In this document: piece after piece, positions 5,930 through 62,512 of the stretch
Position numbering within the stretch: the first letter of the stretch is position 1
Layout of the letters: every line of letters starts with the position of its first letter
Assembly (NCBI GenBank): GCA_951406725.2
Contig: OX597827.1
Coordinates: 80,352,001 to 80,416,000 of the forward strand
DNA from: Octopus vulgaris
Lineage: Eukaryota
Reading direction: 5' to 3'
Length of the DNA stretch: 64,000 nt
Translations under genes and position numbers: made by a program
The notes under the pieces: generated by a model
What the model was told of the DNA's origin: nothing
The model's database searches: none
The model's input: only the letters and a program-made list of their open reading frames with translations

Positions 5930-6061
5930 GGCGTAGGAGTGGCTGTGTTACAGGTTCAGTCCCACTGCGTGGCACCTTGGGCAAGTCTCTTCTACTATAG
6001 CCTTGGGCCGACCAAAGCCTTGTGAGTGGATTTGGTAGACAGAAACTGAAAGAAGCCCATC

Positions 6062-6099
<38 letters not shown>

Positions 6100-6448
6100 G
6101 TATGTGTGCGTGTGTATACATTTGTGTGTCTGTGTTTGTCCCCCCAACATCGCTTAACAACCGATGCTGGTGTGTTTACGTCCCCGTAACTTAGCGGTTC
6201 GGCAAAAGAGACCAATAGAATAAGTACTAGGCTTACAAAGAATAAGTCCTGAGGTCGATTTGCTCGACTAGCATTGCTTGATAACCGATGCTGGTGTGTT
6301 TATGTCCCTGTCATTTAGCGCTTCGGCAAAAGAGACCGATAGAAAAAGTACTGGGCTTACAAAGAATAAGTCCTGGGGGTCGATTTGTTTGACTAAAGGC
6401 GGTGCTCCAGCATGACCACAGTCAAATGACTGAAACAAGTAAAAGAGT
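5930..6448 (+). mobile_element. tRNA-derived CORE-type SINE (family 1) with internal microsatellite and a 125-bp templated insertion
   Basis: Head ggcgtaggagtggctgtgt..ggttcagtccc, core ggcaccttgggcaagt, (TA)n tract, tail gactgaaacaagtaaaagag; related copies at 6716, 13614 and 46686. Confidence 0.85.
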
Positions 6449-6715
6449 TTTTAATTTTTGATGAATGAATATCTTAATGTTGTAAAACTACTTTTTCTGC
6501 AATAAGTCTGTTGTTTGCTTACTACACTTTTTTCTTTTCTTCAAAACTGGAGGGTGTTCAGGGAAATGGAAGCTGTCCTCAGATTAGCTTTTACTACATC
6601 TGGATGGATAGCAAAACCTTCTGATCAATTATGTCTCAGCCTGCTGCTTTATAGTGATAATAATGAACAATCAATTCTATCAAAACTTAAATTTGTTAAC
6701 ATCCACTTTTTGTTA

Positions 6716-7068
6716 TCTCTTTTACTTGTTTCGGTCATTTGACTGTGGCCATGCTGGAGCACCGCCTTTAGTCAAACAAATCGACCCCCAGGACTTATTC
6801 TTTGTAAGCCCAGTACTTTTTCTATCGGTCTCTTTTGCCGAAGCGCTAAATGACAGGGACATAAACACACCAGCATCGGTTATCAAGCAATGCTAGGGGG
6901 ACAAACACAGACACAGAAGCACACACACACATGCGGGCTTCTTTGAGTTTCTGTCTACCAAATCCACTCACAAGGCTTTGGTCGGCCCAAGTGTGCCACG
7001 CAGTGGGACTGAACCCGGAACCATGTGGTTCGTAAGCAAGCTACTTACCACACAACCACTCTTGCGCC
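6716..7068 (-). mobile_element. tRNA-derived SINE (family 1), inverted relative to its neighbour
   Basis: Reverse complement of the family-1 head, core and tail. Confidence 0.85.
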
Positions 7069-8815: not shown

Positions 8816-10524
8816 TAGCTTTGGTAATATTTCTTTCTGTCCTTCAAATTTTGAATTTTTACTTCTTAAATTACTCATAAACCTAACTTTTACTTCACAA
8901 TTCTTGTTAATTCTATATATTTGATAATGGTCTACTGTACCTGCTTTTCCCTGTTCCAACCCACACTTGATCCTCTGTACTTTTTGTTTGTCTCAGTCTG
9001 TCTCTATTTCTCAAGAACTACTGACTTTAAATAATTTCAACAGTATATTGTGAATGCATAAGTCTCACTCACATTTCTTTGGATCATCTTTATAACTCTT
9101 CTTGTTGACTGTGAATTCTGGTTGTAATCTAACACTCATAGACTAGTTGTTGCCCTTGACAAAAGCAAAACTGTTGTACAAATTTGGAAAGAGAATCCCC
9201 TGCAAAAGCTGCCCACAAATCATGTAAGATTGAATGTCTTTCATCATGGGTCTACTCAATTTAAGCTGAATGGAGGATAAACAAAACTACTAGAAGCCTC
9301 ATTCTTTCACAATATACTTTGACAAAGCTTCCCCTGATTAGCCTTCAAATAGAATGTCCCTATAATGTTCAGTTGTCTTTTTCGCTTTCTTCCCCCTCAA
9401 CTTTTAGATTACTTTCTCTTGCCTCTAATTAAACCCCACAACTCTCCCAACTCCTTTTGCAATTTCAATATTTATGAACAGCAGAGCTAAAAACACACTA
9501 GAAATATTACATTTATTCAAACTCTGTCAAGAACATACATACATGGCATGCCCATACATTTATATAAAATGAACACAAAATTATTCACCTGTAATAATTA
9601 GGAAAGGTATTTTTCTTTGGAAAAAGGTTCAATATTTGTTTGTACCTGGACAATTTAGAGTGAAAATTTCAACTTTCTTTGAACTGCTTGATATATTGAC
9701 TGTATCATGTTCATTTCTCTTCTAGAATAGAATGGAGGCATTTTTTTTTCCTTTCAGTTGAATCACTTTTACATATAATACATTTTATAATATATAGAAC
9801 TTCAAAAAACAACACTAGTCATTAATATTTTCTAATTATTGTTACTAGTTCAACGTTAGCCCTGGCTGAGTACAGTTATAAATGTTTTGTTTACACATAC
9901 AATCACACATATTTTTGATAAGCTGCAGTTGTACATCATTAGGGTCCTGTAAAGGATTATATATCTGTCGGTGAAAGGGATTTTAATGCCAAAATTTTCC
10001 TTTTATGGATTTTCAAACCACTTTCTTGCAACTGAAATTGATATCAAGGCTGACCTGTCCACTCTGTTCAACAGCATTATTACTGACCATGGCATAAATA
10101 ATAAAGCTATTGGATCCAACATTTTAAGAAATAGTAACTGACATTTTTTTAGATTTAAGTGTAAAAAATAATGACAATAAGTAAAATTAATATTTACAAT
10201 AACTTTAAAAAATTTATTTTCTGTATCTATGTTTGTTTTTTTTTTATTTATGTAAAACTACGTATTTAATACATTTTTTTTTATTCATTGAATTTCATTT
10301 ACAGTAACTTTCAAATAAAATTCATTTATTGGAACAAAATGAACAAATTTATACAACAGTTTTGTTACTTTTAAAACAACATTACAAGGAAGACTTTGAA
10401 GTCATGGGGTATTTATAATTCTCAGTCAACAAAGATCAAAACAATTTAAGACATTGTTTGAGTTGTGCAGTTTCCTTTTTGGCTATTACCAAAATACAAA
10501 CTAATTACTGAGATAATTATAAAG

Positions 10525-14388: not shown

Positions 14389-16637
14389 TCATAAGCAGAT
14401 AATAAATTTAAATGACATAAAAATCTCAACCCCAGTCTTTATCAGTGTGAACATAAAGCAATTAAATATATATGACTCAGAAATGATATTAAGACATTTA
14501 TAACACGATACAGATAAAATATTTTAAAGAATATGTTTATCCATTAATAGTTAATAGAATGCTGAAATGAAACTTACCTCAAATTATATATTCACGTCGA
14601 TTGGAATTTTCAATAAATGAGCTTAACCATTCCATTATCCTGTATCAATGGTATTTTGTTGGTGCAACAGAAATTTAAATCAGTTATTTGATGCTAATAT
14701 TTGCGTGTCACCTTCTCTTACTCTGGACCTTGCATTTTAAATGTGATTATGTATTTGACATGTAATTACTAAGATATAAATTGTTTTTATGAAATATTAC
14801 CAAATGAGTGTTTTCTGATATAAGGAGGTGTGTGTGTATGTATGTATGTATGTATATATATAGGGTGAATTAAATAAATTATGTTATTTTATTACAATCC
14901 TTTATATCCATTACAAGATCTCACTGGATCAAAATTTGCTTTCCATTTTTCTTCTGGTTGATGATATAAGTGTGTACCGGGGCCAGTTAAAAACTTCTTA
15001 TTTATAAGAAAACTCCAACAAATAGAATGTGAATGGTAGACAAATATTTAAATTTGCTGTATCAAGAATACTTTCCTTGTATTCTGATACTTTTTTCTAA
15101 AAAAAATATCATTTTTTAAAAATGTTATCTATGTATGAACATTATTTTTTTTTCACAGAAATATTTCTGAAGTAGCAAGAACTTAATGAACCATGTCAAA
15201 AATAAGTTTTATTACAACTAAATTTACCCTGGTAGCTTATTAAAACATTTAGTTTGAGAAGTTTGAGTTCAGCTTCTTTTTTAAGAGAGCACATACATAT
15301 AAACATTTACAAATACAAGTATACCCCCAACAAAATAGACATAGTTTCTCTTTTTTTGGAGTTGGGGAATTAATGTCACAATATCAATAAATACAAATAA
15401 TTTTAGTTTCCCCTTTTCTCAAAGGGAAAACTTGATAAAGAAAGCTTGTAAAGAGTCCTCTTCAACGATAGTTCTTATTGAGATAAAAACAGTTTCAAGA
15501 AAACATAACTCAGTGCAAAGGAATACTGAGATAACGGAAAATAAAACAATAAGCCTCAAGATATAAAAGGTTGTGTTTTTGAAAGTAGCAATCTTTAAAG
15601 CTATTTTTGTTCTTTGTTATGCCTAGGATATGGGTAAATTGTAGCAGACGTGAAATATTTACATTGTTTGACTTGTCATGGTTTTGAAATTAAAGTTCCA
15701 CTCAAATATTATGCAACAAAATTTCCATTATGTTATCTACATGTTAATTAATAGACTGGGGGCAGATTTGTTTTCATGATTGCTACATGTTTCAAGTCTG
15801 TCTTTTGGTGGTGACTCTTATTCAAGGCTGCTGCTTAATGTAGGTTCCAGTCCCTGAAATGAACCAATGAAATGTTTTAAAGCGTAAATTTCAAATCAAA
15901 TTAAAATTTTATTGAAATACAAAGTCTGAATAGTTCCAGTAATAAAATAACAAAACATTTAACAAAAAAAAACTATTGGAAATTTTGCTTTTCATATAAA
16001 ATACATGATGTTATTTGAAAATAGCTAAACAGTTGTAAGATGTTCTGTTGTGTCTGGGAAAGTCATTTTCCTTTTGTGCCTTACACAGACACAACAGAAT
16101 ATGCTTCAACACACGAACTCATATAAAGAATCTTGCAAACCAAATCCAAAAAACGAAGTAGTAAGATGAGATTTGAATTAAGTTAAAACATTAATAAAAA
16201 TGATATTAAATGATTATCACAACAGCTAATTAGTAACATTAAATCCAACCTGTCGTTAAAAAAAAAACAAAAACTGCCCACCAAACTCACTTCTCAGTTA
16301 TTTCCTGATAGTATTTCATGTTGACTTCATTTGAACCTGTTACTGTCCGTTTGAGTTGTCAATGTGTCTTTTCCTTTCTTGTGCTGGTGGCATTAATAAA
16401 ATGCAATCTGTTAAGTGTGGGACCAGAGGATCCTTTCAATCTTGTAGAAGACATGGCAACTTCCCTAGTGCTGGTGCCAAGAGAAAATGCCTTTTTGTAC
16501 ACTCTGTAAAGTAGTTGGTGTTAAAAAAGGGTATTTAACCATGGAAGACCCAGTCAGCCTATCTCTGCATGGAAACGGAAATGTGTAACAATCACGATGA
16601 TGATAGATATTTACAAGGGCATTATTAAATTACTTAC

Positions 16638-19350
16638 TTGAAATTTTGAGTATTTCTCTATGAAGTTGAAATTTCCCACCCTTGGGTATTGGCCCTATTG
16701 AGTAGAGAGTGAATCAGATGGGGTGTCAGAAGTCAAAGCTGAATAATCTTCTACAGCATCATCATTAGAGTTTACTAAAACTGGTCGGCTGCACTTCTGT
16801 TTAAAAATATAGCAAATGATTAGTAAGGAAAATTATCAATTCTAATCAAAGGAAATTGGAGAAAAATTTTAGTCAAATATGTTTGTAAAAATAAATTTTT
16901 TAAATTTTGTATCAATTTAAAAGTTACTGTCAAGAAACGGTTCTTACCAATAAAAGTTTGGGTAAAGTTCTGCTTTGAACTTTATATTTGTTCTGTAGCT
17001 GACCTTCTGCTTAACATTCACTCTTGGATCTCTCAGAATAGATATTCCGCTTCACCATCTCTTCTGCATTCCTCGACATAGCAACAGAAGTGTTAGTCTG
17101 TTACAACAATTGTTTCATCTCTGCTCTACCTTGGTAGGCTGTATTCTTTGTGGCAGCAGCTGTGTTATCTCTGTGTTTAATACATTTCATAATACACAGC
17201 GTTATAGAAACAACAATAGCCACTGATATTATTACTGCTGATGATACAATGATAATAACCCATGTCATATGGACCCGACCTGAAGATTGTAAAGGTCCAC
17301 TTTTCGACATTGGTGATGTCTCGTTACTAACAGCCAATACCAAAGTGACACTAGTTGTTGACGACTGAACTGGACTACCACTGTCCTTCACAACAAACAC
17401 CAGCTCATAACTTCCAGCATCATTTAGATAAACTTGTCTGGAGAAGGATAAAGCACCACTGTGTGAGTTCATACTAAACAACTGTTTATCATTTCCTTGT
17501 ATGATTGCATATCTGAGGAAAGCATTGTTTCCACTGTCCCCATCAGAGGCTCTCAAAACTGTGATGTCACTCTTACTCTGCGGATGGTACTGCACATTTA
17601 GCGTGTAAGGGTCACTACTAGGATATGTAAAATACGGAGCATTGTCATTTTGATCAAGAATCTCAACAACAACATTCGCTGTGTCATTCAGAGATGGGCT
17701 TCCATTATCTTTGACAAAAACCTCAAACTTATACACATCTTGTTTCTCTCTGTCCAATGACATGGTTGCTGAAATGAAGCCATAACTGGTGATGAGAAAT
17801 GGGAGATTGGATTTTTCTTTACGCAGCAGAGAATATGTGAGTTGTCCAGCAGATTCAAGATCAGGGTCAGTGGCATTGACAAAACCAATAGGGAAGTCTT
17901 TATCTTTGTTTTCGTAGGTGAGGAATTGGAATGTATCTTTGGTAAACTGTGGTTGTACATCGTTGATGTCAGTCACTTGGATAGAGAGGCTTTTAACACT
18001 TTTAAGAGGAGGTAATCCTTTATCTTGACAGGAGACAGGAATGTTATAGTGTCCTTGTGTTTCTCTGTCCACTGGTTTGTTTAGAATGATTTTATATTCT
18101 TTAGATCCCATTGACTGTAGTTTGAATGTAACATGTTTGACATTACAGCTGACCTCTCCATTTTGTCCCACATCATTGTCAGTGACCATCACATAAGCAA
18201 TGAAACTACCAACTTTGATGTCTTCCAGAATGGTAGCTGTGTTGTGATTCTGTGTAGAAATAAAGTTCACATCAATATTTGGAGGATTGTTGTGTTGGTT
18301 GATGACATTTACTGAAACTGTGGTTATAGAACTGAGAGGTGGCTTATCTCCATCTCTGGCCTCTATAAACAGTTCATAAGTTGTCTTTCCATCTGATTTT
18401 CATTATTTAGTTGAAAATATTTCTCTAGTGTTTTCATTTAGATCCAAATATCCCTTTGCTTGGCTGGGAGCATTGGGGCTGAAATGATATGTAACTTTAC
18501 CATTTTCTCTGGGATTAGTATCTGTCTCTCATAAAACAAGTTTCTTTTTTGTCTTAATCTGTTCTGATTGAAATATTATAAAGAAATTTTGTGAACACAG
18601 GAATATTGTCCTTTAGTGTGATTACAGCATCTAAAGAACTTTCTTGAGGAGCAGCTCCTCCATCTTTAGCTACGATTCATTCAGGTATCATAACTGTCTC
18701 TTATTTCAATATCTACTGGTTTTTCAAAGGCAATTCTTGACAAATGATATGTCATCTGTTCTTTTAGAAATTGCCAAAGAAAATACTTTGTTGTGATTTT
18801 AAAAAAAATGTTTGTAATAAATGACTTTTGCATCTCCACATCCTTAACTATGGTGTTTGGTATTGATAACTGAAGTCTCTCGCCATCACTTTCTAAAAAC
18901 TAAATACTGACTTTCTTAACAGAGAACTCAGGCTGATGGTCGTGAATGTCTTGTAGAATAACTTTGAAATTAAGTGTTTCTGTAAAAGGTTTGGCTTTGT
19001 GCACAATAAATTTAATATTTCTAGAACATTCTTTATTATATATACAAAATGGCTCTGCATAAGGTTTTTGAATTTTGTGTCATTCCTTTGCTCGTTAGAA
19101 AGTGGAGTAAAATTATGTTTTGGTTGATTACATGTTATTAATTGTTGTTCTGAAGATTTGATATCCAAGAGTTTTGAGTTGGCATCTGTGTCTGCTGCAT
19201 AAGTTCCAAGTCTTCTTTCTTCTTCTTCAGCCTTATAGATAAAGTCTGTAGCATGATACTTTTGTAAGAAGAGTATTAAGAAGGCCAATGACAGAAATAT
19301 GTTGCTTGCAGCAGTGATAATGATGAAAGGGATCAAATTGAGAATATTAT
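16638..19350 (-). pseudogene. Protocadherin pseudogene psi-E (large exon 16948-19350; tail exon 16638-16796)
   Basis: Start codon reads ATA at 19298-19300 (CAAC ATA TTT CTG TCA vs CAAC ATG TTC CTG TCA in A/B). EC1-EC3 carry many frameshifts and stops. EC4-TM (~16985-18240) is almost identical to the intact genes but has TAC>TAA (17101-17103) and TAT>TAA (~17012). Tail exon KCSRPVLVNSNDDAVED has a TAG. Acceptor at 19351-53, donor at 16947. Confidence 0.9.
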
Positions 19351-20290
19351 CTGCAACGAAAACAAAACCATGTTAAAATATAACACACTGCACTTTCACA
19401 AAAAAAAACAAAAAAAAAAAAGAAATGTAAATGTTGAACTTTGAGATTATTTACTCTATAGAAAACTGAAAACTGTCTGCTAAAAGGTTTACATTAACTG
19501 TTCCTTAGATAAATAGACTTATAGGGGTTCATCAATTTGAACATTATATGAACTAATCCTGCTTTTAGATATTTTGTTTAGAAAGCTTGTTTTGCCTTAA
19601 CTGAGCAAAACTAAGATGACAAACATTCCAATTATGACCATCTCTTCCTTTTGTATATCTAGGATTATCTAGGTTCAAATAGGCGTTCAATTTTTTAAAG
19701 GCAGTGAGTGTTATTTGAGGGATATATGGCAGCTATTTTTGGCAAATTATGAGACCTATATGCATTAATTATCATTTTACAACTATAAACATTTGTTCAG
19801 TCTTGATTGTATAGATTAGTTTTTAGTATCTGGTTCATATATTTACAATTTAAGGATGTGTTTCCTTGAAGTTTGTCAAATATTTTTCAAATAGCTTCAT
19901 GCAGTTCAGGTTAGGATATTAAAGTAATTCCTAATTACAATTAAAACTTTGACAGGCAGGTCTGAAGGGATTCTATCAAATGCTAGAGCTGAGATGAAGC
20001 AGATATATCCGATGTACAGAAAGGGAGATGGAAGGGAACCTCAGTCAGTTTCTTCACAACCAAAGAATATAGATAAAAATTATTCTCATAGACTAATAGT
20101 ACATTTGTAGGTTAAGTAGGTACATTGTTGGTAGAAAAATGGATAAAATAATTAGTCTTAGCCTAATCATAGGCAACAGAACAGCAGCAGTTATTTCCAC
20201 AAATGTATGCTAACCAGGGCTGACAGACGAGCATAAGAATAATTTCAACCAGGAACTCATGCACACTGCCTCAATAATGAAAGGAAGCAA

Positions 20291-20506
20291 GGTGGTGAGC
20301 TGGCAGAAACGTTAGCACGCCAGGCAAAATGCTTAGCAGTATTTTTTCTGTCTTTACATTCTGAGTTCAAATTCTGCTGAGGTCGACTTTGCCTTTCATT
20401 CTTTCAGGGTCAATAAATTAAGTACCAGTTGCGTACTGGGATCACTCTAATCGACTGGCCCCCTCCCCCAAAATTTCGGACCTTGTGCCTTGAGTAGAAA
20501 AGAATA
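20291..20506 (+). mobile_element. tRNA-derived SINE (family 2)
   Basis: ggtggtgagctggcagaaacgttagcacg...gagttcaaattc...gactttgcctttcat...taagtaccagtt; related copies at 25576 and 56354. Confidence 0.8.
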
Positions 20507-21869
20507 ATGAATGGCAGCAACCTTGTTAACGAGGCTGATACCTTTACTGTATATACACCTGTCTATCTGAATAGCAGTTCCCTCGGTTGTGTCCCCTTGG
20601 GCTGGTTACTCTCTCTCTCCCTCCCACAAATTTACCAGCAACCTCTTGTAGTAACATTTCCATCAAGCTTCTTTTTTTGGCAGTGTTGCTGACAGCAAGT
20701 GCACTGCTATCCTTTTGCATACACTCCCTCGACAACATATCAATTTGCAATAACATATTGCTTACATATCAAGAAAAACTTCCCATTCCTCATCCTCTGC
20801 TGAGCAAACCTTACTTTCAGCTTCCATCATTATGAGTAGCTTCTTTTATAGACATCTGACGTTGCTTATTGCTCTTGCCCTTCCTTTAGTCTTTCCAAGC
20901 TTGGATATTGCCCAAACAATAGAAAAATCAAGGCTCAGTGGGGTTCTGTAATGCAAATGACTTAGTGATTTGCAACTTTAATATGAAGAAGCTTACTTGC
21001 CACCTGCCAGGTAAAAATGCAAGCCATATGACTTGATGCTTAGTCGGAAACAAGATGGATAGGCAACATGGATTAGTGATTAGTGACCTCACAAGAGCCT
21101 CCATGAGAAATATAACAAGGTGGAACAAAACAGTTTTTAAAGAGAGGAGCCCTGTAGATAGTCATGTATGTATCCTTGGCTCACCAGAGCTCAGATTGGC
21201 CCTGATTTCAGGATAAGGACTAAACAGCTCAAAGGCACGAAGATAATGTAGAGAATGAATGTATGGAAATTGAAGGATTCCTCAATCAGTTGTAGGTTTG
21301 AAAAACATATTGAGCAACATGTAGGATGAAAAGGAGAAGCTTACAGAGGTTGAGAGAGATTCTCTATTGGCCAGCTTGCTGTGAGCTATAGACCAAATCT
21401 GTCAATGGAACAAGGTTCCAGTTTGGTGGACAGTGACATGGTAGTAGAACTGTACGGCAGTATTAGATAGCATCATAAAAGCTAACAGATAAGCCTGGAA
21501 ATATTGAACGAAAGTGTGTGGGGAGTGGGGGAGATAGCAACAAACAACATTAGGTTTGATATAAAAGAAGCTAGATGTCTGGTACAGATTTGAAAGCCAT
21601 GGGTCAGTACGAAGATGGTGTTGTGGAAAAGTGTGTATGGAATGATAATATGCAAATGTTATATAATTTAAATTTGCTTTATTTCTTTTTTATGTACTTA
21701 AACACTGGAAATAATAGAATATATTTGAAGATGTTAATATATGAAATGAAAATGGGAAAATGAAAAGTCCTAATTATGAGACTAAAATATAATTAAAAAA
21801 TTTACAATGGTAATTTTAAAAAATATTTCTTATATCACTGAAAAAATAAACCAAAACAGATCTTATTCA

Positions 21870-22200
21870 GGAGTAAAGATTGTTTGCCAACATAACATGG
21901 CAGTCCTGGTTTAGGATGAATGTTGCTGTAATTCAGCCCCGGGAGACATCGTCTCCAGTTGGCTATACAACCCGATCTGTGTCCTTATATTTTTGAACAA
22001 GGGAATCTAGCACACCCACTCAGCTCAAAACAATATTTGCATATCACGATTTCCGGGTTATTTCCCTTCATCAGCACAGAATAATTGTTTGGCAAGAGGT
22101 GACGCTGCCAAATTCCTGTTCGAAATGTATAGTTTCCAAAGTGACAACCAGTCACTGAATATCTCACGTTGTGAGATTTACAAATAGTAATTTTCTTATT
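21870..22200. mobile_element. Second copy of the 210-553 repeat
   Basis: 21870-22100 aligns directly with 267-500; 22156-22198 is the reverse complement of ~211-254. Confidence 0.7.
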
Positions 22201-22819
22201 CATAGATCTTATATTGTTATTTTGCAAGTAAGAAATCCAATATTTTGCCATATTTAAAAATTGGATAACAATTTTTTTCCATGATCCTTGATATGAATAA
22301 TATAATTACAGAATTCCTTTTAGGTTTACAAAAATAAAGCCAATATCTGATATCCCTATTGTCATTAACCTTACATCAAGGACTCTAGAAAATTCTTCAG
22401 TCTAAGTTCAGTCAAGTGCATGCAACAGGATTCTGCCATTTACATTCAATGTCTGAGAGCTAAAAATTCCAATTCATTCATCACAAGATGTCACTGGAAC
22501 TTTCCAGACTCTACTCAAAATGTTTATGCCCCAGCCTATGCCACTTAGCTAATATTCAAAATATCTCTTGATATTTTATATTAAATAGTTTATTCTATAA
22601 ATCACAAACAATAATTAACAAATTACATGATATTCAAACCGAGTGAAATGTTTCTAAACCTAAAATAGTGTCATAAGCATCATATTTTGCTTACATAAAC
22701 ATACTAAGCATACTTTAGTAAAAATATATATAAATACAAAAAATCAACAGCAAAATGTAGAAAGGATGATTATGTGTGAGACAAAATACAATAGAAAATT
22801 AATTTAATAATTCAACCTA

Positions 22820-23310
22820 TTGAGGCAAGTGAAATCAAAATCGCTGACGTGGCTGATGGCAGTACTGCCCGATTGGTACTCGTGCCAGTGGAACGTTAAA
22901 AGCACATTGAAGTGTGATCATTGTCAGGGCCACAGATTGGCTCCTGTGCTGGCGGCACATAAAAAGCACCATTCGAGCGTCATCGTTGCCTCACTGGCAC
23001 ATGAAAAACAGCATTCGAGCATGGTCATTGCCAGTGCCGCCTGACTGGCTCCCATGCAGGTAACATGTAAAAAAAATACCTTTTGAGCGTGGTTGTTGCC
23101 AGAACCGCCTGACTGGCTCTTGTGCCGGTGGCATGTCAAAGCACCCACTACACTCAGTGGTTGGCATTAAGAAAGGCATCCAGCTGTAGAAATTGTCAGA
23201 TCAGATTGGAACCTGGTGTAGCCTTCTGGCTCACCAGTCCTCAGTTAAACCATCCAACCCATGCCAGCATGGAAAGCGGACTTTAAATGACGACAATGAT
23301 GACGATGATG
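22820..23310 (+). mobile_element. RTE-LINE 3' UTR / RTE-tailed SINE
   Basis: Tandem gcc(a/g)gtggca..taaaagcacc units, then ccaacccatgccagcatggaa and a (GAT)n tail. Confidence 0.8.
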
Positions 23311-23468
23311 AATTAAAGATTCTCACTTTGTGCAATGATTATTGCACAACAGATACTGGACATTTGCCGATTATGTAAACATAGAACAATTTATATATTT
23401 CTTTGTCCAAACAACGAAAATGTTTTATCAGCAAAATATGAAAACTTGAAAGATGTAACTAAACTTAC

Positions 23469-23600
23469 ATGTTTTGTTTTATGATTGACCCTGCCACTTG
23501 AGGTCAACCAGTTCATTGTAACAATTGCTACTACTACTGCTGTTGCTGCTGGGTCTTTACTGCTCTAACAACAGCTTTACGATGATCAACCAGAGAGGAG
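23469..23600 (-). promoter_or_regulatory. Putative decayed leader exon/promoter of psi-E
   Basis: Donor AT|GTAAGT at 23468, in the position equivalent to the other leaders; only weak traces of the shared motif (ttcattgt...gctg...acaacagctttacgatgat). Confidence 0.35.
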
Positions 23601-24174
23601 CCTGCTACAACATTTCATTTGGTTGAATGTGTGTGTATGTGTGTGAGAGAGAGAGAGTTACTACTTGAATTCTATGCTCTTGCTTTTTTTTCCTCTATCT
23701 GTATAAATGCTAAGTAGCTTGTAGAAGACAAAGTGAAGTACAGAGAATCTAAATGTAAAATAATGGAATTTTAAACTGACTTTGTTTAGAAAGGAAAGCA
23801 AATTTTGAAGGAAATAAAATATCATCAAAGGGCTCTTATATCCTATGGTTGATGTAAAATTAAATATTTGTTATCAAAATGTAACTCTCATGTGTTTCAT
23901 AACTTTAACTAAATAATAGCAATAAAATTTGTCAGTGATCAAGAATTAATCACACAACAAAGAAATTTGCTTTAAAAATAAGTCTAACTTTAAATATTTC
24001 AAGAGGCATCAAAATGATTCAGCCTACAGTTTTGCTTGCCAAAAGTGAACCACACCATGGAGATATCAATTCAAAATGGTACCAGTTTCATAAATTAGTG
24101 ACTTTGAATTAACAGTATATGATAATAATACATTACGTGAAAGTATTTTTAATTCTATATTACAAGATAGAGTA

Positions 24175-24361
24175 TATATATGCATGTGTGTGAGCCTATC
24201 TACCTACCCACCTGTGTGTATATATACATATATATATACACACACATACATACATATAAATACACACACACATACATACATATAAATACACACACACATA
24301 CATATAAATACACACACACACATACATATAAATACACACACACACATACATATAAATACAC

Positions 24362-24415
<54 letters not shown>

Positions 24416-24520
24416 CTACACATATATACACATACATACATATAAATACACACACTCACACACATAAACATGCACACACACACACACACATGTATGTATG
24501 TATGTACTTATATATATATA
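24175..24520. repeat. Compound CA/TA micro/minisatellite (unit ~ (CA)n-TACATATAAATA)
   Basis: Directly visible; it generates the low-complexity HTY/VCM ORFs in the track. Confidence 0.95.
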
Positions 24521-25302
24521 CTGGATGGAGTGGCTGGATCTGTTTACTTATTAATATCATTTCTAACATTGGAGCAACATAAACAGTTGAGTACTGAACT
24601 AAATGACTTTTGGCATTTATTTTGGTCTTTTCATGTTCTAAGTTCAAATCCTAGGCTGGATTTTGTCTTTCATTTTCCTGAAGTGTATAAAATAAATACA
24701 AGTAATGTATTAAGTCTATTTTATGATTTAGCAGTCCTTGCATGAAATTTTTGTCTTTTTTTAGACAAATATTAACCCTGATGAAACGCATATGCTTAAA
24801 AGTGAATTTTTATAAATTCACGAGTGGATATGAATTGAAACAAATTGTAGGATTGATATTTGTTTTAATTATTTATATTATAATTATATTATATAATAAT
24901 GTTAATAAATTTTTAATATGTCAATTGTATTTCTCTATTTCCTTTAATATTTATATATTGAAATTATACCATTTTAAGTTCAGATTTTTTCGCTACTATC
25001 TTGTGGTATTTAACTGAAGAACCAGTGAAAATTGGATGTTTTCCATCCCATTGAAGGAAAGTGTTTTTCCTTGGATTGATTTATATGTACACACATATAG
25101 CTATGCATACACACACACACACACATATATTTAAGTACACTAAAATTGCCTATCTTAAAAAATCTAGTAGTCTTGTTTCAGAATGTCTAATGAAAGCTAT
25201 TTGGGAAGATAATTAAAAAGATAAAACTTCACGATGTCAGTTTAAGAATGTTAGAAATAATGTTTGCCTCCCTAAGACAGATAGAAGATAAAATATTATG
25301 TA

Positions 25303-26738: not shown

Positions 26739-26893
26739 CTGTATAATGAAAATAAAAGAAATTGAAAAACATTGGATATTTACTCTTAAGATTAAGATTT
26801 ATAAAAAAAATGAAATTAATAATATAAACAATTACACAAACTAATTTTTTATTTCAAACTTAAGACACAGATGTAAAATATCTTAAGACTTAC

Positions 26894-29266
26894 TTGGGTA
26901 GGTTTTGGTAAAGTTCTCGACTGAACTGAAGATTCATATTTGTTCTGTAGCTGACCTTCTGCATAACATTCACTCTTGGATCTCTCAGAATAGATATTCC
27001 GCTTCACCATCTCTTCTGCATTCCTCGACATAGCAACAGAAGTGTTAGTCTGGTACAACAATTGTTTCATCTCTGCTCTACCTTGGTAGGCTGTATTCTT
27101 TGTGGCAGCAGCTGTGTTATCTCTGTGTTTAATACATTTCATAATACACAGCGTTATAGAAACAACAATAGCCACTGATATTATTACTGCTGATGATACA
27201 ATGATAATAACCCATGTCATATGGACCCGACCTGAAGATTGTAAAGGTCCACTCTTCGACATTGGTGATGTCTCGTTACTAACAGCCAATACCAAAGTGA
27301 CACTAGTTGTTGACGACTGAACTGGACTACCACTGTCCTTCACAACAAACACCAGCTCATAACTTCCAGCATCATTTAGATAAACTTGTCTGGAGAAGGA
27401 TAAAGCACCACTGTGTGAGTTCATACTAAACAACTGTTTATCATTTCCTTGTTTGATTGCATATCTGAGGAAAGCATTGTTTCCACTGTCCCCATCAGAG
27501 GCTCTCAAAACTGTGATGTCACTCTTACTCTGCGGATGGTACTGCACATTTAGCGTGTAAGGGTCACTACTAGGATATGTAAAATACGGAGCATTGTCAT
27601 TTTGATCTAGAATCTCAACAACAACATTCGCTGTGTCATTCAGAGATGGGCTTCCATTATCTTTGACAAAAACCTCAAACTTATACACATCTTGTTTCTC
27701 TCTGTCCAATGACATGGTCGCTGAAATGAAGCCATAACTGGTGATGAGAAATGGGAGATTGGATTTTTCTTTACGCAGCAGAGAATATGTGAGTTGTCCA
27801 GCAGATCCAAGATCAGGGTCAGTGGCATTGACAAAACCAATAGGGAAGTCTTTATCTTTGTTTTCGTAGGTGAGGAATTGGAATGTATCTTTGGTAAACT
27901 GTGGTTGTACATCGTTGATGTCAGTCACTTGGATAGAGAGGCTTTTAACACTTTTGAGAGGAGGTAATCCTTTATCTTGACAGGAGACAGGAATGTTATA
28001 GTGTCCTTGTATTTCTCTGTCCACTGGTTTGTTTAGAATGATTTTATATTCCTTGGATCCCATTGACTGTAGTTTGAATGTATCATGTTTGATATCACAG
28101 CTGACCTCTCCATTTTGTCCCACATCATTGTCAGTGACCATCACATAAGCAATAAAACTACCAACTTTGATGTCTTCAGAAATGGTAGCTGTGTTGTCAT
28201 TGATTGCAGAAACATAATCAATATCAATAGATGGAGGATTGTTGTGTTGGTTGATGACATTTACCAAAACAGTTGCTATGGAACTGAGGGGAGGACTACC
28301 CCCATCTCTGGCCTCTATGAACAGTTCATATGTTGTTTTTTCATCTAATTTAGAATACTTAGTTGAAAATATTTCTCCACTGTTTTCATTTAAATCAAAA
28401 TATCCCTTTGCTTGGCTGGAAGTTTTGGGGCTGAAATGGAAAGTAATTTTACTATTGGAACCCGCATCTTTGTCTGTCACTGACAAAGTAAGAATAGGTT
28501 TTGTCTTGTCGTGTGTGGTTCTAATGGAAATATTATAAAGTGGTTTTGAAAATACAGGTGGATTATCATTCTCATCTTCGACAACAATCTCAACATTTAA
28601 TACACTTTGTTTAGATGGAGAACCTCCATCTTTAGCAATTACTTCTAAATTGTATTTCTCTTTTAACTCTCTGTCTAATTTCTGTTTTAAAACAATCTTT
28701 AACGAGGAAATACCATCAGCTCTTTTGGAAACTGTCAGGGAAAATGAGTCATCAGATTTTTTAACTTTGTATTCAATGAAAGAATTTTGATAACTCACAT
28801 CTTTGTCTATGGCATTTGGAATTGACTTTTTCATTCCTCTCCCATCACCTTCCCTAAATTGTAGAGTGATTTGTTTTTCTGGAAACTCTGGTTCGTGGTC
28901 ATTGATATCCTCTATTACTATTTTGATTTTCAATATTTTTGTAAATGACTTTGTTTTCCGAACAACAATTTTAATAATCCGAGAACATTCTTTGTTGTAT
29001 GTACAAAGTGATTCGGCATCAAGTTTCTGAGAAGTGTAAAGTTTCCCTGTTTTGGTCACATTGAAATATTGTGTCACTTTTCTTTTGAGTTGACTGAATG
29101 TCACCATTTGCTGTTCAGTGGATTTGACATTGTCCAACAGTTTCGAATCGGCAGCAATGTCTGCTACGTATGTTCCTGGACTTCTCTCTTCTTCTATATG
29201 ATAAGTGAGGTCTACACTAAGACACGTATGAAACAGTGAGAAGATGATCCAGAGTGGGAACCACAT
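26894..29266 (-). CDS. PCDH: Protocadherin D, large coding exon 1 (signal peptide, six cadherin repeats, TM, proximal tail); full protein ~871 aa
   Basis: 805-aa ORF with DINDHEPEF, LDRE, A.DGG.P and DQNDNAP cadherin motifs, EC1 C-X5-C and hydrophobic TM WVIIIVSSAVIISVAIVVSITLCIM. Donor CAA|GTAAGT at 26893; 5'UTR acceptor TTGTTGCAG at 29321-23. Symbol is family-level only. Confidence 0.96.
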
Positions 29267-34519: not shown

Positions 34520-36880
34520 AGGATTAAACACTCGAAGTCTGTAGTTGATTTTTCGATGTAAAAGTCACATTTTAAATACACTGCTGATATAAGACAGCAA
34601 TAATAATAACAATAGATATTTAGTTATTATTTCCTTTTGCTAAGGTTATATCTGATGTTGAAAGATTGAAAGAAAAATTCAGGAGTGAGGGAAAATATTG
34701 CTTATTGTTGTCTGTGTTTATATGTTTCAGATAATTTTTTTTTTTTTTTGGGGGGGGGGGAGAGATAGTGATTTTGTAATGTAGTTTCTGCATTGGTTTT
34801 GGTATGTGTTATCTCCTAAAACAGAGAGTATAAAGTGATTTAATACAGAGAAATTTAGAGAAAAACATTTTCAAAACAGTTAGCTATCTTATCCCAATGA
34901 TTGTGCTATAAAATCTGTCTAAAACAAAGAACATTGGTTAAAATGTAAATTATTTAAGAAAACGAAGAATCAGTTGATTGAATTTCGTTCTCCTTACTGC
35001 TGCTCCATATCCATATTTAAAATTAAGAAATACAAATATTTCTGAAAAGTTTCAAAGAATAATCAATAAGATAAATACAAGTGGATAAGCAAAATTAATA
35101 GCATAAAGCTTTATTCCTTAAATCTTTGTTAAGGAAATTAAATTTTACCTGATACTCCAGGTATTTCTTCATGTTTTGTATCTTTCCCTATTTCACTATG
35201 TTCTTGAATTGATACTGTGTTGGGTCAGAAATTTCACAGAGTTGAGCAGTCGTCCAAACTATCATTGTTAGATGTGACCAACTGGTTGAATATTTCTAAT
35301 CGAAAAGAAATATGATAGAACTTAGAACATAATTTCAATCAAGATAATAAATTGTCATTATTGAACTAGATTTGCTAATTAAGGATCACAGCTAAATTAA
35401 ATGTAAACTTCAATTATACAATGTCAATGAATTGTTATACATGTCTATAAATAGTGTTTAATAAATTAAAATAAATAAAATAATAAAAATTAAATAAAAT
35501 CTTACTAAAGATTTAGGAAAGGTTCTGTTTGAATAGATATTCCGCTTCACCATCTCTTCTGCATTCCTCGACATAGCAACAGAAGTGTTAGTCTGGTACA
35601 ACAATTGTTTCATCTCTGCTCTACCTTGGTAGGCTGTATTCTTTGTGGCAGCAGCTGTGTTATCTCTGTGTTTAATACATTTCATAATACACAGCGTTAT
35701 AGAAACAACAATAGCCACTGATATTATTACTGCTGATGATACAATGATAATAACCCATGTCATATGGACCCGACCTGAAGATTGTAAAGGTCCACTCTTC
35801 GACATTGGTGATGTCTCGTTACTAACAGCCAATACCAAAGTGACACTAGTTGTTGACGACTGAACTGGACTACCACTGTCCTTCACAACAAACACCAGCT
35901 CATAACTTCCAGCATCATTTAGATAAACTTGTCTGGAGAAGGATAAAGCACCACTGTGTGAGTTCATACTAAACAACTGTTTACCATTTCCACTGCTTTT
36001 TTAGAACTATTTTATATTCCTTTGATCCCATTGACTGTAGTTTGAATGTGTCATCTTTGAGATGACAGTTCACCCGTTGGACACAAACGGTCCTCTAACT
36101 ATTGATATAGACTTTATTTCTACTCCAAATGACATAACTACTATTTCTGAAGATATCAAAGTTGGTAGTTTCATTGCTTATGTGATGGTCACTGAAACTA
36201 CCAACTTTGATATCTTCAGAAATAGTAGTTATGTCGTTATTTGGAGTAGGAATAAAGTCTATATCAATAGTTAGAGAACCGTTTTTTTCATTTATTATAT
36301 GAACCAGAACAGTGTCTACAAAGAGAATATTGCTTTCAACTCTGGCTTCACATATAATTCACAATTTATTTTCAGCCACACATTGATATCTGCTTATTAA
36401 TACTCCAATTTTTCATTTAATTTAAAGTGCTTTAATTTTATATATGATGTTTTAGGATTTGCAATATAATGTTATTTTGCTGTTTTCTCCTGCATTTGAG
36501 CCAGATGCTATCACTGTAATAACTGGTTTCATCTTGTCGTATGTTCCCTCCAGTGATGCACGATAAATATTTTGAATAAGGGAGGCTAATAGTCATCATT
36601 CATGTCTTCAATTTGTTTTGGTACGGCTGTTCTAACTTCAGCAGAAATTTTACCATATCTGTTTTCAAGGTCTCTCTCTCTAATTTCCACTCCACAATGA
36701 TTTTTATTGATTATATCTGATCAAACCTCTTTGCTAAATGATATTCATTTAAAGACTTCTTCAGTCCTACATCTCTATATACTGGAATGGAAGATTTATT
36801 CCTTCACCATATTGATCCCTCAAAGTTATTTCTTCAACAAGAACCATAATGATATTCATTAAAGAATTTTGTTTTAACCT
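34520..36880 (-). pseudogene. Protocadherin pseudogene psi-C (rearranged large exon 35506-~36880; tail exon 35149-35295; possible exon 3 relic ~34524-34590)
   Basis: 35531-35990 is near-identical to the EC6-TM-tail of intact genes. A ~570-bp deletion joins EC4 (KEYKIVLKK) to EC6, a ~66-bp tail deletion is present, and an inverted duplication lies at 36085-36284. EC2/EC3 are decayed (TYDKMKPVITVIASGSNAGENSKITLY). The tail exon ends KHEEIPGVS|GT with stops. Confidence 0.9.
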
Positions 36881-47065: not shown

Positions 47066-47092
47066 AGAGATTATTAAAAATTGAAATCTTAC

Positions 47093-49468
47093 TGAAGATG
47101 GTTTAGGAAGGGTTCTGCTTTGAACTGAAGATTCATATTTGTTCTGTAGCTGACCTTCTGCATAACATTCACTCTTGGATCTCTCAGAATAGATATTCCG
47201 CTTCACCATCTCTTCTGCATTCCTCGACATAGCAACAGAAGTGTTAGTCTGGTACAACAATTGTTTCATCTCTGCTCTACCTTGGTAGGCTGTATTCTTT
47301 GTGGCAGCAGCTGTGTTATCTCTGTGTTTAATACATTTCATAATACACAGCGTTATAGAAACAACAATAGCCACTGATATTATTACTGCTGATGATACAA
47401 TGATAATAACCCATGTCATATGGACCCGACCTGAAGATTGTAAAGGTCCACTCTTCGACATTGGTGATGTCTCGTTACTAACAGCCAACACCAAAGTGAC
47501 ACTAGTTGTTGACGACTGAACTGGACTACCGCTGTCCTTCACAACAAACACCAGCTCATAACTTCCAGCATCATTTAGATAAACTTGTCTGGAGAAGGAT
47601 AAAGCACCACTGTGTGAGTTCATACTAAACAACTGTTTATCATTTCCTTGTATGATTGCATATCTGAGGAAAGCATTGTTTCCACTGTCCCCATCAGAGG
47701 CTCTCAAAACTGTGATGTCACTCTTACTCTGCGGATGGTACTGCACATTTAGCGTGTAAGGGTCACTACTAGGATATGTAAAATACGGAGCATTGTCATT
47801 TTGATCTAGAATCTCAACAACAACATTCGCTGTGTCATTCAGAGATGGGCTTCCATTGTCTTTGACAAAAACCTCAAACTTATACACATCTTGTTTCTCT
47901 CTGTCCAATGACATGGTCGCTGAAATGAAGCCATAACTGGTGATGAGAAATGGGAGATTGGATTTTTCTTTACGCAGCAGAGAATATGTGAGTTGTCCAG
48001 CAGATCCAAGATCAGGGTCAGTGGCATTGACAAAACCAATAGGGAAGTCTTTGTCTTTGTTTTCGTAGGTGAGGAATTGGAATGTATCTTTGGTAAACTG
48101 TGGTTGTACATCGTTGATGTCAGTCACTTGGATAGAGAGGCTTTTAACACTTTTCAGAGGAGGTAATCCTTTATCTTGACAGGAGACAGGAATGTTATAG
48201 TGTCCTTGTGTTTCTCTGTCCACTGGTTTGTTTAGAATGATTTTATATTCTTTAGATCCCATTGACTGTAGTTTGAATGTATCATGTTTGACATCACAGC
48301 TGACCTCTCCATTTTGTCCCACATCATTGTCAGTGACCATCACATAAGCAATGAAACTACCAACTCTGGTGTCTTCCGAAATGGTAGCTGTGTTGTCATT
48401 GACTGAAGAAACATAATCAATATCAATAGATGGAGGATTGTTGTGTTGGTTGATAACATTTACCAAAACAGTTGCTATAGAACTGAGAGGAGGGCTGCCC
48501 CCATCTCTGGCTTCAATAAAAAGTTCATAGGTTTTCTTTTTACTCAGATTTGAATATTCCCTTAACAAAATTTCCCCACTCGTTTCATTTAACTGAAAAT
48601 AGCTTTTTGCAAGATCTGATGTCTTTGGGCTGAAATGGAAAGTAATTTTACCATTTTCACCAGCATCAGCATCAGTTACAGATAAAACAATGATGGGTTT
48701 GGATTTGTGATGTGCACTTTGTATGGATATATTATATAGAGGTTTAGAAAATACAGGTGGGTTGTCATTGTCATCTATTATGGAAATATTTATGTTTAAA
48801 ATCCCTTGTTTTGCTGGCGAACCTCCATCTTTAGCTATGACTTGTAATAAATATGTATCTTTGATTTCTCTGTCTAATGATTCTTTTAAAACTATTTTAA
48901 GAGAAGAAATACCATCAGCTCTTTTAGACACTGACAGAGAGAATGGTTCTCCATTCTTTGATTTTAATTTATATTGTATTAAGGAATTTTGAAATCCAAC
49001 ATCTTTGTCCATAGCATTGGGTATTGATCGTTTTGTGCCTTTTCCATCTGTTTCCGAGAACTTTAATGAAATTTGCTTTTTGGGAAACTCAGGGTGATGG
49101 TCATTGATGTCTTCTATTACTATTTTGATTTTTAATATTTTTGTAATACTTCTTCCTTTATTGACAACAACCTTCACAGTTCTGGAACATTCTTTGTTGA
49201 ATGTGCAGAGATCTTCTGCATCCAGTGTCTGAGCAGTGTACAGTTTACCTGTTTTGGTGATGTTAAATAACTGTGCCACCTTTCGTTTGAATTGACTGAA
49301 TGTTATCAAATGTTGGTCAGATGGTTTAACATTGTCTAAAAGTTTAGAATCGGCAGCAATGTCTGCTACATATGTTCCTGGACTTCTCTCTTCTTCCACA
49401 TGGTAGGTAAGGTCTATGGTCAGGACACAGTGGACCAGTGACAATACAATAGAAAATGACAGGAACAT
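47093..49468 (-). CDS. PCDH: Protocadherin B, large coding exon 1 (SP, EC1-EC6, TM, proximal tail); full protein ~866 aa
   Basis: 830-aa ORF with six cadherin repeats and TM; donor TCA|GTAAGA at 47092; 5'UTR acceptor CTCTTTTTAG at 49522-24. Symbol is family-level only. Confidence 0.96.
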
Positions 49469-59965: not shown

Positions 59966-60136
59966 CTAATGACAAACAAACGATAAAGAAATGTGAGAAG
60001 ACACCAAACAATGGAAGTTACAATCAACATGGATAGAGAACAATTTAATAGTGGAATGTATTATTGAAGTTAAAACATATTCAAAGAGATTTCATTGTTC
60101 ACTTTTACAGAGAGAAAATGTAATGTTTCCACTTAC

Positions 60137-62512
60137 TGGGGTAGGTTTTGGTAAAGTTCTTGACTGAACTGAAGATTCATATTTGTTCTGTAGCTGACCT
60201 TCTGCATAACATTCACTCTTGGATCTCTCAGAATAGATATTCCGCTTCACCATCTCTTCTGCATTCCTCGACATAGCAACAGAAGTGTTAGTCTGGTACA
60301 ACAATTGTTTCATCTCTGCTCTACCTTGGTAGGCTGTATTCTTTGTGGCAGCAGCTGTGTTATCTCTGTGTTTAATACATTTCATAATACACAACGTTAT
60401 AGAAACAACAATAGCCACTGATATTATTACTGCTGATGATACAATGATAATAACCCATGTCATATGGACCCGACCTGAAGATTGTAAAGGTCCACTTTTC
60501 GACATTGGTGATGTCTCGTTACTAACAGCCAATACCAAAGTGACACTAGTTGTTGACGACTGAACTGGACTACCACTGTCCTTCGCAACAAACACCAGCT
60601 CATAACTTCCAGCATCATTTAGATAAACTTGTCTGGAGAAGGATAAAGCACCACTGTGTGAGTTCATACTAAACAACTGTTTATCATTTCCTTGTATGAT
60701 TGCATATCTGAGGAAAGCATTGTTTCCACTGTCCCCATCAGAGGCTCTCAAAACTGTGATGTCACTCTTACTCTGTGGATGGTACTGCACATTTAGCGTG
60801 TAAGGGTCACTACTAGGATATGTAAAATAGGGAGCATTGTCATTTTGATCTAGAATCTCAACAACAACATTCGCTGTGTCATTCAGAGATGGGCTTCCAT
60901 TATCTTTGACAAAAACCTCAAACTTATACACATCTTGTTTCTCTCTGTCCAATGACATGGTCGCTGAAATGAAGCCGTAACTGGTGATGAGAAATGGGAG
61001 ATTGGATTTTTCTTTACGCAGCAGAGAATATGTGAGTTGTCCAGCAGATCCAAGATCAGGGTCAGTGGCATTGACAAAACCAATAGGGAAGTCTTTATCT
61101 TTGTTTTCGTAGGTGAGGAATTGGAATGTATCTTTGGTAAACTGTGGTTGTACATCGTTGATGTCAGTCACTTGGATAGAGAGGCTTTTAACACTTTTAA
61201 GAGGAGGTAATCCTTTATCTTGACAGGAGACAGGAATGTTATAGTGTCCTTGTGTTTCTCTGTCCACTGGTTTGTTGAGAATGATTTTATATTCTTTAGA
61301 TCCCATTGACTGTAGTTTGAATGTATCATGTTTGATATCACAGCTGACCTCTCCATTTTGTCCGACATCATTGTCAGTGACCATCACATAAGCAATGAAA
61401 CTACCGACTTTGATGTTTTCAGAGATGGTACCTGTGTTATAATTGATTGCAGAGACATAATCTATATCCATAGATGGAGGATTATTGTGTTGATTGATGA
61501 CATTCACTAAAACAGTTGCAATAGAACTGATTGGAGGATTACCACCATCTCTGGCCTCTATAAACAATTCATAGGTTTTCTTTTTTTCCAACTTGGAGTA
61601 TTTACTTAAGAAAATGCTTCCACTGGTTTCATTTAAAAGAAAATAATTTTTGGCTAGATCTGATGTTTTTGGACTGAAATGGAAAGTAATTTTACCATTT
61701 TCACCTGAATCAGCATCAGTTACAGACAAAACAATGATGGGTTTAGACTTGTGATGTGCACTTTGTATGGATATATTATATAAAGGTTTAGAAAACTCTG
61801 GTGGGTTGTCATTCTCATCCGTTACTGAGATATTTATATTCAAAATACCTTGTTTTGCTGGCGAACCTCCATCTTTAGCTATGACTTGTAATAAATACGT
61901 ATCTTTGACTTCTCTGTCTAATGATTCTTTTAAAACTATATTAAGTGAAGAAATACCATCAGCTCTTTTAGACACTGACAGAGAGAATGGTTCTCCATTC
62001 TTTGATTTTAATTTATATTGTATTAAGGAATTTTGAAATCCTACATCTTTGTCTATGGCATTCGGTATTGATACTTGAGAACCTTTACGATCATTTTCAC
62101 CAAACTGTATATTCACATTCTTTATAGGAAACTCCGGTTCGTGGTCATTGATATCTTCTATTACAATTTTGACTTTTAATATTTTTGTGAAGCTATCCAT
62201 TTTCTTAATAATAACTTTCACAGTTCTGGAACATTCTTTGTTGAATGTGCAGAGATCTTCTGCATCCAGTGTCTGAGCAGTGTACAGTTTACCTGTTTTG
62301 GTGATGTTAAATAACTGTGCCACCTTTCGTTTGAATTGACTGAATGTTATCAAATGTTGGTCAGATGGTTTAACATTGTCTAAAAGTTTAGAATCGGCAG
62401 CAATGTCTGCTACATATGTTCCTGGACTTCTCTCTTCTTCCACATGGTAAGTAAGGTCTATGGTCAGGACACAGTGGACCATTGATAATACAATGGACAA
62501 TGACAGGAACAT
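60137..62512 (-). CDS. PCDH: Protocadherin A, large coding exon 1 (SP, EC1-EC6, TM, proximal tail); full protein ~868 aa
   Basis: 806-aa ORF with six cadherin repeats and TM; donor CCA|GTAAGT at 60136; 5'UTR acceptor TTCTGTTTTAG at 62569-71; the leader exon probably lies beyond the window end. Symbol is family-level only. Confidence 0.96.

Follow-up and report, generated by a model that had tools for sequence, protein, structure and literature searches.

In the octopus, about 30 protocadherin genes stand in tandem in one array (array 1), whose end copy, psi-E, is decayed in its 5' part and its 3' end and fresh in between; this half-dead, half-fresh structure has been confirmed as real. The near-identity of its fresh block to intact genes very probably arose by recurrent non-allelic gene conversion from live paralogs of two arrays, a process that would be blind to whether the recipient still functions. 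The window is the whole 64,000-nucleotide stretch analysed (G000:C14:80352001-80416000), and 700 kb around it was fetched for comparison.

The array and its decayed end copy

A 401-bp probe from the block gave 30 matches at 98-100% identity between 80369k and 80670k of G000:C14, all on the minus strand and with psi-E at the end of the row; psi-E was aligned to 28 other array-1 copies for consensus comparisons. The live proteins have six cadherin repeats (in Pfam, Cadherin_2 plus five Cadherin stretches in A and D), and their closest named relatives are Octopus and Argonauta protocadherins. The genes stand head-to-tail, each A-type copy consisting of a long exon 1 followed by its own exons 2 and 3, so that six repeats and whole genes with their own downstream exons are found here as in other clustered protocadherin arrays of cephalopods. 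A second array (array 2) comprises 25 copies at 80.01-80.26 Mb with a homogenised block of its own, which from coding position 1000 onward lies 0-6% from its own consensus in 24 of the 25; the array-2 end gene is fresh only up to about coding position 1700, and the nearest array-2 gene is 107 kb from psi-E. The parts of psi-E and of its live neighbours in the window are the following.

16640..16799, minus strand: decayed exon 2 of psi-E, which carries an in-frame stop, lacks the HYEEIP motif and is 33-43% identical to exon 2 of live copies
16938..16983, minus strand: psi-E's own exon 1 end (6-bp deletion, diverged tail, GT retained)
16984..18169, minus strand: array-1 block of psi-E (EC4-EC6, membrane helix, start of the cytoplasmic part), 9 differences from the 28-copy consensus
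17011..17013, minus strand: private stop (TAA in place of TAT) at a distance of 27 bp from the 3' edge (1 T against 28 A in 764 kb)
17101..17103, minus strand: private stop, TAC to TAA (1 T against 29 G in 764 kb)
18170..18312, minus strand: array-2-type tract of psi-E (end of EC3, start of EC4), 143 of 143 bases as in the consensus of 25 array-2 copies
18315..19300, minus strand: dead 5' part of psi-E (signal peptide, EC1 to most of EC3)
26849..29266, minus strand: exon 1 of live neighbour D, an open frame and the closest relative of the psi-E 5' part
47069..49468, minus strand: exon 1 of live gene B
60107..62512, minus strand: exon 1 of live gene A, with Pfam cadherin stretches

A sequence-only reading of this DNA had described psi-E as lacking its ATG, with a decayed exon 2 and leader and with many indels and stops between 18240 and 19300. 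The start codon is indeed ATA (19298-19300) and the decay of exon 2 is borne out. The 5' part carries five frameshifts, near 19093 (-7), 18815 (-1), 18746 (+1), 18690 (+4) and 18539 (-5), and eight stops (first bases 19082, 18902, 18801, 18679, 18556, 18531, 18405 and 18402), making ten with the two in the fresh block; all the 5' lesions nevertheless lie at or above 18400, and the fresh part reaches 18312 instead of ending at 18240. No decayed leader is visible: nothing in 19300-25300, upstream of psi-E, matches the leader motif that precedes A, B, C, D and, at G000:C14:80315073, a further gene; no exon 3 of psi-E was found. Frame-breaking lesions together with a retained exon-intron layout, the exon 2 remnant standing behind an intron, are features of a duplicated (unprocessed) pseudogene.

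The divergence of the two halves, a comparison that had been proposed, differs sharply: in 100-bp bins the 5' part of psi-E departs from the array consensus by 22-42%, and coding positions 1200-2300 are 0-1% from the array-1 consensus, as in live copies, whose block lies 0-3% from consensus and whose 5' bins reach 32%. Loss of purifying selection is nonetheless seen in both halves of psi-E. Among residues invariant in three live paralogs, 41-46% are altered in psi-E against 9% (D), 12% and 24% in live controls, and at invariant codon positions 25-30% of first and 14-16% of second positions have changed, against 5-15% and 1.5-13% in three live controls (second positions 1.5, 4.3 and 12.6%, an array-2 gene being the high control). 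Recent death of a gene whose 5' half was merely divergent was rejected because this codon-position change exceeds that of the live controls. In a tree of EC1-3 with 30 rows psi-E has an end branch of 1.41, the median being 0.1 and the placement of long rows unsure. The closest copy in EC1-3 is D at 53% identity (runner-up 49.5%); at coding positions 800-1000 (window 18300-18500 and 28250-28450) psi-E and D are mutual nearest relatives, 19-21% apart, which is possibly an old shared tract.

If 4-5% of changes create a stop, the eight stops found over 858 bases correspond to about 20% neutral change since psi-E died; a rough 11-21% was taken, as no live orthologue for calibration appeared among 120 listed proteins (778 further matches lie beyond these). 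One contig of a second organism (organism B) carries the same dead half with 20 differences and one gap in 1040 bp, and one of 18 listed differences hits a stop. The dead half being common to both with a single gap, at least four of the five frameshifts are older than the species split, and the death of psi-E is much older than that split. Judged by these lesions, psi-E reads as a long-dead protocadherin copy.

Fresh tracts of psi-E and psi-C

It had been claimed that 16985-18240 is almost identical to intact paralogs. This near-identity stands, with 9 differences at about 1200 sites, 6 of them private to psi-E, but the single edge near 18240 dissolves into two tracts. Between 18222 and 18312 psi-E has the array-2 state at 18 of 18 diagnostic sites, and from 18169 down it has the array-1 state at 9 of the next 10; the 52 bp between (18170-18221) are identical in both arrays, so that the switch falls there. 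Array 2 as a second donor family had escaped the sequence-only reading, as had a second dead copy, psi-C. Block variants of psi-E are common to disjoint sets of paralogs, namely g08/g16 (17767), A/g11/g15/g19/g25 (17302) and B (18141). Both private stops reported earlier were recovered, each seen once in 764 kb; their presence among six private changes exceeds expectation (P 0.02-0.05, calculated after the fact), which counts against recurrent conversion. The suggestion that dead copies donate stops back to live genes found no example, as neither TAA occurs in any of the 28 other copies of this assembly. Private sites gather near tract edges: those with an edge no more than 50 bp away number 3 of 6 in psi-E and 2 of 38 in live copies (p=0.013, with edges chosen after seeing the data).

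The second dead copy and a fainter remnant consist of the following parts.

10019..10141, minus strand: protocadherin fossil, faint and lacking any fresh part, a contrast case (EC4 start recognisable over 72-103 bp at 69-78% identity, best E 1.7e-13)
35147..35290, minus strand: decayed exon 2 of psi-C, two stops
35531..35991, minus strand: fresh array-1 piece of psi-C, 460 of 461 bases as in the consensus, the lone difference 8 bp from a 571-bp deletion
35989..36077, minus strand: array-2-type piece of psi-C beyond the deletion (identity of 94% with the consensus of array 2 and of 96.6% with its end gene, against 86% with array 1)
36081..36570, no single strand: inverted piece (36081-36195) and decayed 5' remnant of psi-C (81% and 68% identity to consensus, 5 stops)

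psi-C repeats the pattern of psi-E, a decayed copy with a fresh piece. Its array-2-type piece is older than its fresh array-1 piece, and the inverted piece also matches the core common to both arrays over about 40 bp. The fossil, detectable only at the EC4 start, is very old.

As regards selection on the block, the private changes of psi-E comprise 1 silent, 3 replacing and 2 stop, and those of 21 clean live copies 35 silent and 6 replacing (1:5 against 35:6, Fisher p=0.0016; the live count omits six copies with small frameshifts and g29, which has a 108-bp deletion). The protein of the psi-E block is thus unselected, as had been proposed. The broader claim that selection cannot explain the freshness holds for the recipient, which needs none; selection is not irrelevant, however, because the same live counts place the donors' block under purifying selection. 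The all-site private density of psi-E is 6/1200 or 0.50% and the live silent-site density 35/(21 x 296) or 0.56%, so that dead and live copies would be overwritten about equally often if private density measures time since overwriting, a loose estimate from six events. Left alone since its death, the block would be expected to carry 130-250 substitutions; it carries 9.

It might be argued that selection keeps the block for the sake of a product made from another start or by read-through from D, which the stops trim to a tail-less membrane protein. An open frame of 432 codons (17101-18399) with three Pfam cadherin stretches and a Met at 18189 does exist, both private stops lie downstream of the membrane helix, and several runs guessed to be RNA, which may be DNA, hold more than half of the words of 15800-20300. 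This explanation is nevertheless very unlikely: 5 of 6 private changes alter the protein, the frame has no signal peptide, no leader motif upstream and a broken exon 2, the 362-residue product has no exact match in a 15-billion collection, selection would leave the silent-site identity unexplained, and psi-C is fresh yet has no usable frame.

Short reads bear on whether the structure could be an assembly or polishing artefact in which reads of live copies were collapsed onto a decayed locus. Four runs among 24 listed were examined; X3 is of the same species and X7 of organism B, and X1 is possibly from the assembled animal itself. One single-copy contig of X1 spans 16700-17041, 58 bases into the block and 30 bases past 17011, and judging from its end it carries the 17011 stop allele; the 17101 stop stands in an X1 contig of depth 26. 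The psi-E flank contig of X3 and that of X7 run to 17010 plus three leftover letters, an ending that implies a non-stop base at 17011 in both; the 17011 stop is thus young and likely polymorphic. The 3' junction of the block is therefore supported as real in short-read contigs. The earlier argument that private substitutions speak against an artefact has to be qualified, since only the two stops among the six private sites are seen in read contigs, a point that also counts against the best explanation. The missing interior alleles of psi-E in X3, X7 and X11 carry no weight, as the contigs also lack a variant present in 6 assembly copies. Block contigs have about 25-40 times the flank depth, which is not a copy-number estimate.

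An artefact would find support in six copies at G000:C14 80540k-80627k whose 1-2 bp frameshifts and zero stops look like residual error, in the possible identity of X1 with the assembled animal, and in the 5' edge (18312-18353), for which no bridging contig was found among the contig pieces listed (423 others lie beyond these). It is the least probable of the explanations considered, in view of the X1 contig that enters the block and the X3 and X7 contigs that enter it from the same flank, of the psi-C deletion joint, which is present in contigs of both X3 and X7, and of a three-part collinear mosaic drawn from two arrays, which is no simple collapse. Argonauta proteins, from another assembly, also show the same block with a different consensus.

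Probable recurrent overwriting and its alternatives

Concerted evolution of the block is observed in two assemblies. In the block, the proteins of 10 Argonauta paralogs are 99.2% identical to one another and those of 4 G000 copies 99.4%, against 90.7% between the sets; in EC1-3 the values are 73%, 79% and 76%, respectively, and a tree of EC1-3 intermixes the genes of G000 and Argonauta. Of 32 fixed columns, two of which are gaps, psi-E agrees with G000 in all 32. Within array 1 the 21 live copies show a mean of 10 block differences per 1200 bp, and silent sites are homogenised in the 3' block with a sharp edge, as is typical of regional conversion. Among 24 shared variant sites 107 of 276 pairs fail the four-gamete test, to which recurrent mutation can add conflicts, and block distance is uncorrelated with genomic distance (rho -0.04). 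GC3 is 0.36 in the block against 0.21 in the 5' part (consensus values, without a significance test), and the private changes of live copies show no G/C bias (16 against 15).

The molecular route would be germline break repair with a paralog as template. We infer the steps of conversion here from what is directly seen, namely the decay, the two fresh tracts, the donor families, the unselected block and the lineage-specific consensus. Conversion would need near-identity, so that a block with about 29 near-identical donors would stay convertible, and the diverged 5' part and flanks would have fallen below the required identity, dropped out and decayed. Tract edges beside unlike sequence would be covered less often, and private changes would gather there. 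The private density of about 0.5% would equal mutation rate times mean time since overwriting and, set against roughly 11-21% neutral change, would mean that each site has been overwritten some 20-40 times. A rate about that of live copies would make the recipient's protein function unnecessary, and purifying selection on the live donors would keep the pasted sequence functional. The earlier notion that the private substitutions date the last conversion would accordingly need changing, as they measure a mean time since overwriting rather than a single event, half of them lying close to an edge.

The same reading had called homogenisation mechanistic and ongoing. The unselected block agrees with the first term; the second depends on more than the psi-E block. 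Pooled over the fresh tracts of both dead copies, the count is 7 private changes, or 10 if shared variants are included, where per-lineage drift since the split from organism B would give 17 (P 0.005 and 0.04), an expectation based on a 2% distance that includes polymorphism, with 3-5 differences per 1040 bp within species. For the psi-E block alone there is no clear shortfall, with 6-9 changes against 11.4 expected (P 0.06 and 0.30), and a few long events therefore fit it too. One or two long, fairly recent replacements of an old wreck, by long conversion or double unequal crossover and with none continuing, are accordingly conceivable: the 6-9 changes in 1186 bp are within reach of the expectation, and short-read contigs cannot phase the block interior. 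Such a history is unlikely all the same, as the array-2 tract, the array-1 block and each of the two psi-C pieces would need an event of their own, replacement requires a near-identity that is lost in a copy 11-21% decayed, the sharing of psi-E variants with disjoint paralog sets stands against it, and it offers no reason for the live-like silent density or the edge clustering. Repeated overwriting is favoured by the two donor families, edge clustering, disjoint shared variants, four-gamete conflicts and psi-C. Recent duplication of the whole unit was rejected as the cause of block identity because 5' halves and flanks differ.

A bolder extension of recurrent conversion, which we regard as speculative and rather doubtful, is that its rate is equal in dead and live copies, that dead copies at array borders act as neutral meters and that psi-E relays sequence between the arrays. 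For the relay step the evidence is a single short patch of array-2 type in the live copy g10, where five array-2-type bases in 10 bp also occur in psi-E; array 2 itself could be the donor, and an Argonauta paralog has a similar residue at this position. If true, a self-sustaining homology trap would maintain the constant-plus-variable design of these protocadherins, and the dates of 'recent expansions' read from whole-gene trees would be those of conversion instead of duplication.

Known systems and other copies of the arrays

Regional gene conversion in teleost clustered protocadherins was reportedly described by Noonan in 2004. In fugu, clustered protocadherins have a 3' region more than 99% identical, a discrete boundary that falls in EC4 or EC5, a divergent 5' region, a separate consensus per subcluster and raised GC3 (PMC1852091). 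The octopus arrays resemble these in 3' identity, discrete boundary, own consensus per array and raised GC3. Unlike those of fugu, each octopus gene is a complete unit that has an exon 2 and an exon 3 of its own, and the expansion is an independent one (PMC9068888); dead octopus copies also take part, whereas the word 'pseudogene' is absent from PMC1852091. Conversion is weaker in anole and Xenopus protocadherins (PMC2764143, PMC4978886). For cephalopods, the available portions of PMC9068888 and PMC6339937 report head-to-tail sub-arrays, possible pseudogene fragments and conversion as one suggested cause of similarity, drawn from whole-gene trees; these portions hold no block map, donor assignment or dead recipient.

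Conversion between genes and pseudogenes is likewise known, as judged from extracts on CYP21A2 and its pseudogene (PMC3843699), SIGLEC11/SIGLEC16P (PMC5701461) and MHC pseudogenes (PMC3924837), the last also describing a mutation-conversion balance ended by divergence or indels. As in these systems, sequence passes between part of a non-functional copy, here psi-E, and functional paralogs. In those extracts they are noted for flow from pseudogene to gene, whereas in psi-E many live donors of two families feed a dead copy, and no transfer of lesions of the CYP21 type is seen (its stops in 0 of 28 other copies, one assembly). Both regional protocadherin conversion and gene-pseudogene conversion being already known, the dead, half-converted protocadherin is an added case; none was found in the literature searched, most subscription journals and supplements lying outside its scope, and an earlier mention is possible.

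Earlier protocadherin work deduced conversion from silent identity among live genes, where selection on the recipient was not fully set aside. A dead recipient removes this doubt, and its rate, free of such selection, matches that of live copies. psi-E is a clean natural control. The principle itself would hardly be a surprise to a specialist in concerted evolution. The graded series of psi-E (mostly fresh), psi-C (one piece) and the fossil at 10.1 kb (none) is suited to testing how much homology convertibility needs. Old arrays of cephalopod protocadherins can seem young in trees of whole genes, as the intermixing of G000 and Argonauta in EC1-3 suggests; PMC9795677 dates an expansion to 8-14 Ma and does not use the word 'conversion' in its main text.

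Further copies and fragments were noted along the contig. Between the arrays, one live gene (G000:C14:80312653-80315073) is mostly unconverted, with a 126-bp patch 90% like array 1, and another (G000:C14:80260910-80263279) is array-2-fresh only over coding positions 1000-1700. The 25 array-2 copies yielded no long-dead gene whose block is fresh. The six array-1 copies with 1-2 bp frameshifts and zero stops (g17, g18, g19, g23, g24 and g25; G000:C14:80540000-80628000) are either assembly errors or very young pseudogenes. The copy at G000:C14:80615800 was rejected as a second long-dead gene, its 13 stops being read off-frame after small frameshifts and its sequence being near consensus throughout. 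The far-end copy g29 (G000:C14:80669251-80671584), whose 108-bp deletion is in frame and in the cytoplasmic part, has 9 private replacing calls against 1 silent in its block, some of which may be deletion-alignment effects, and is perhaps a copy losing constraint. Past the far end of array 1 lies an orphan (G000:C14:80682041-80682731) with 139 and 278 bp at 100% identity, a 690-bp deletion between them and an exon 2, for which no 5' remnant was found, and then a lone 255-bp block piece at 99.2% identity (G000:C14:80694858-80695112), around which no cadherin sequence was found.

In array 1, two EC2-EC3 types coexist at coding positions 500-1000, D, g06, g14, g20, g22 and g23 differing by 20-30% from the rest, and these types are ancient; EC1 is homogenised in all array-1 copies except D and psi-E. 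Finally, the window contains diverged repeats of ~1-1.4 kb at 75-80% identity (38498-41143 against 56600-59232) and, within 5950-7060, a 180-bp near-perfect inverted repeat (6268-6447 with 6717-6896), all of which are probably remains of mobile elements.
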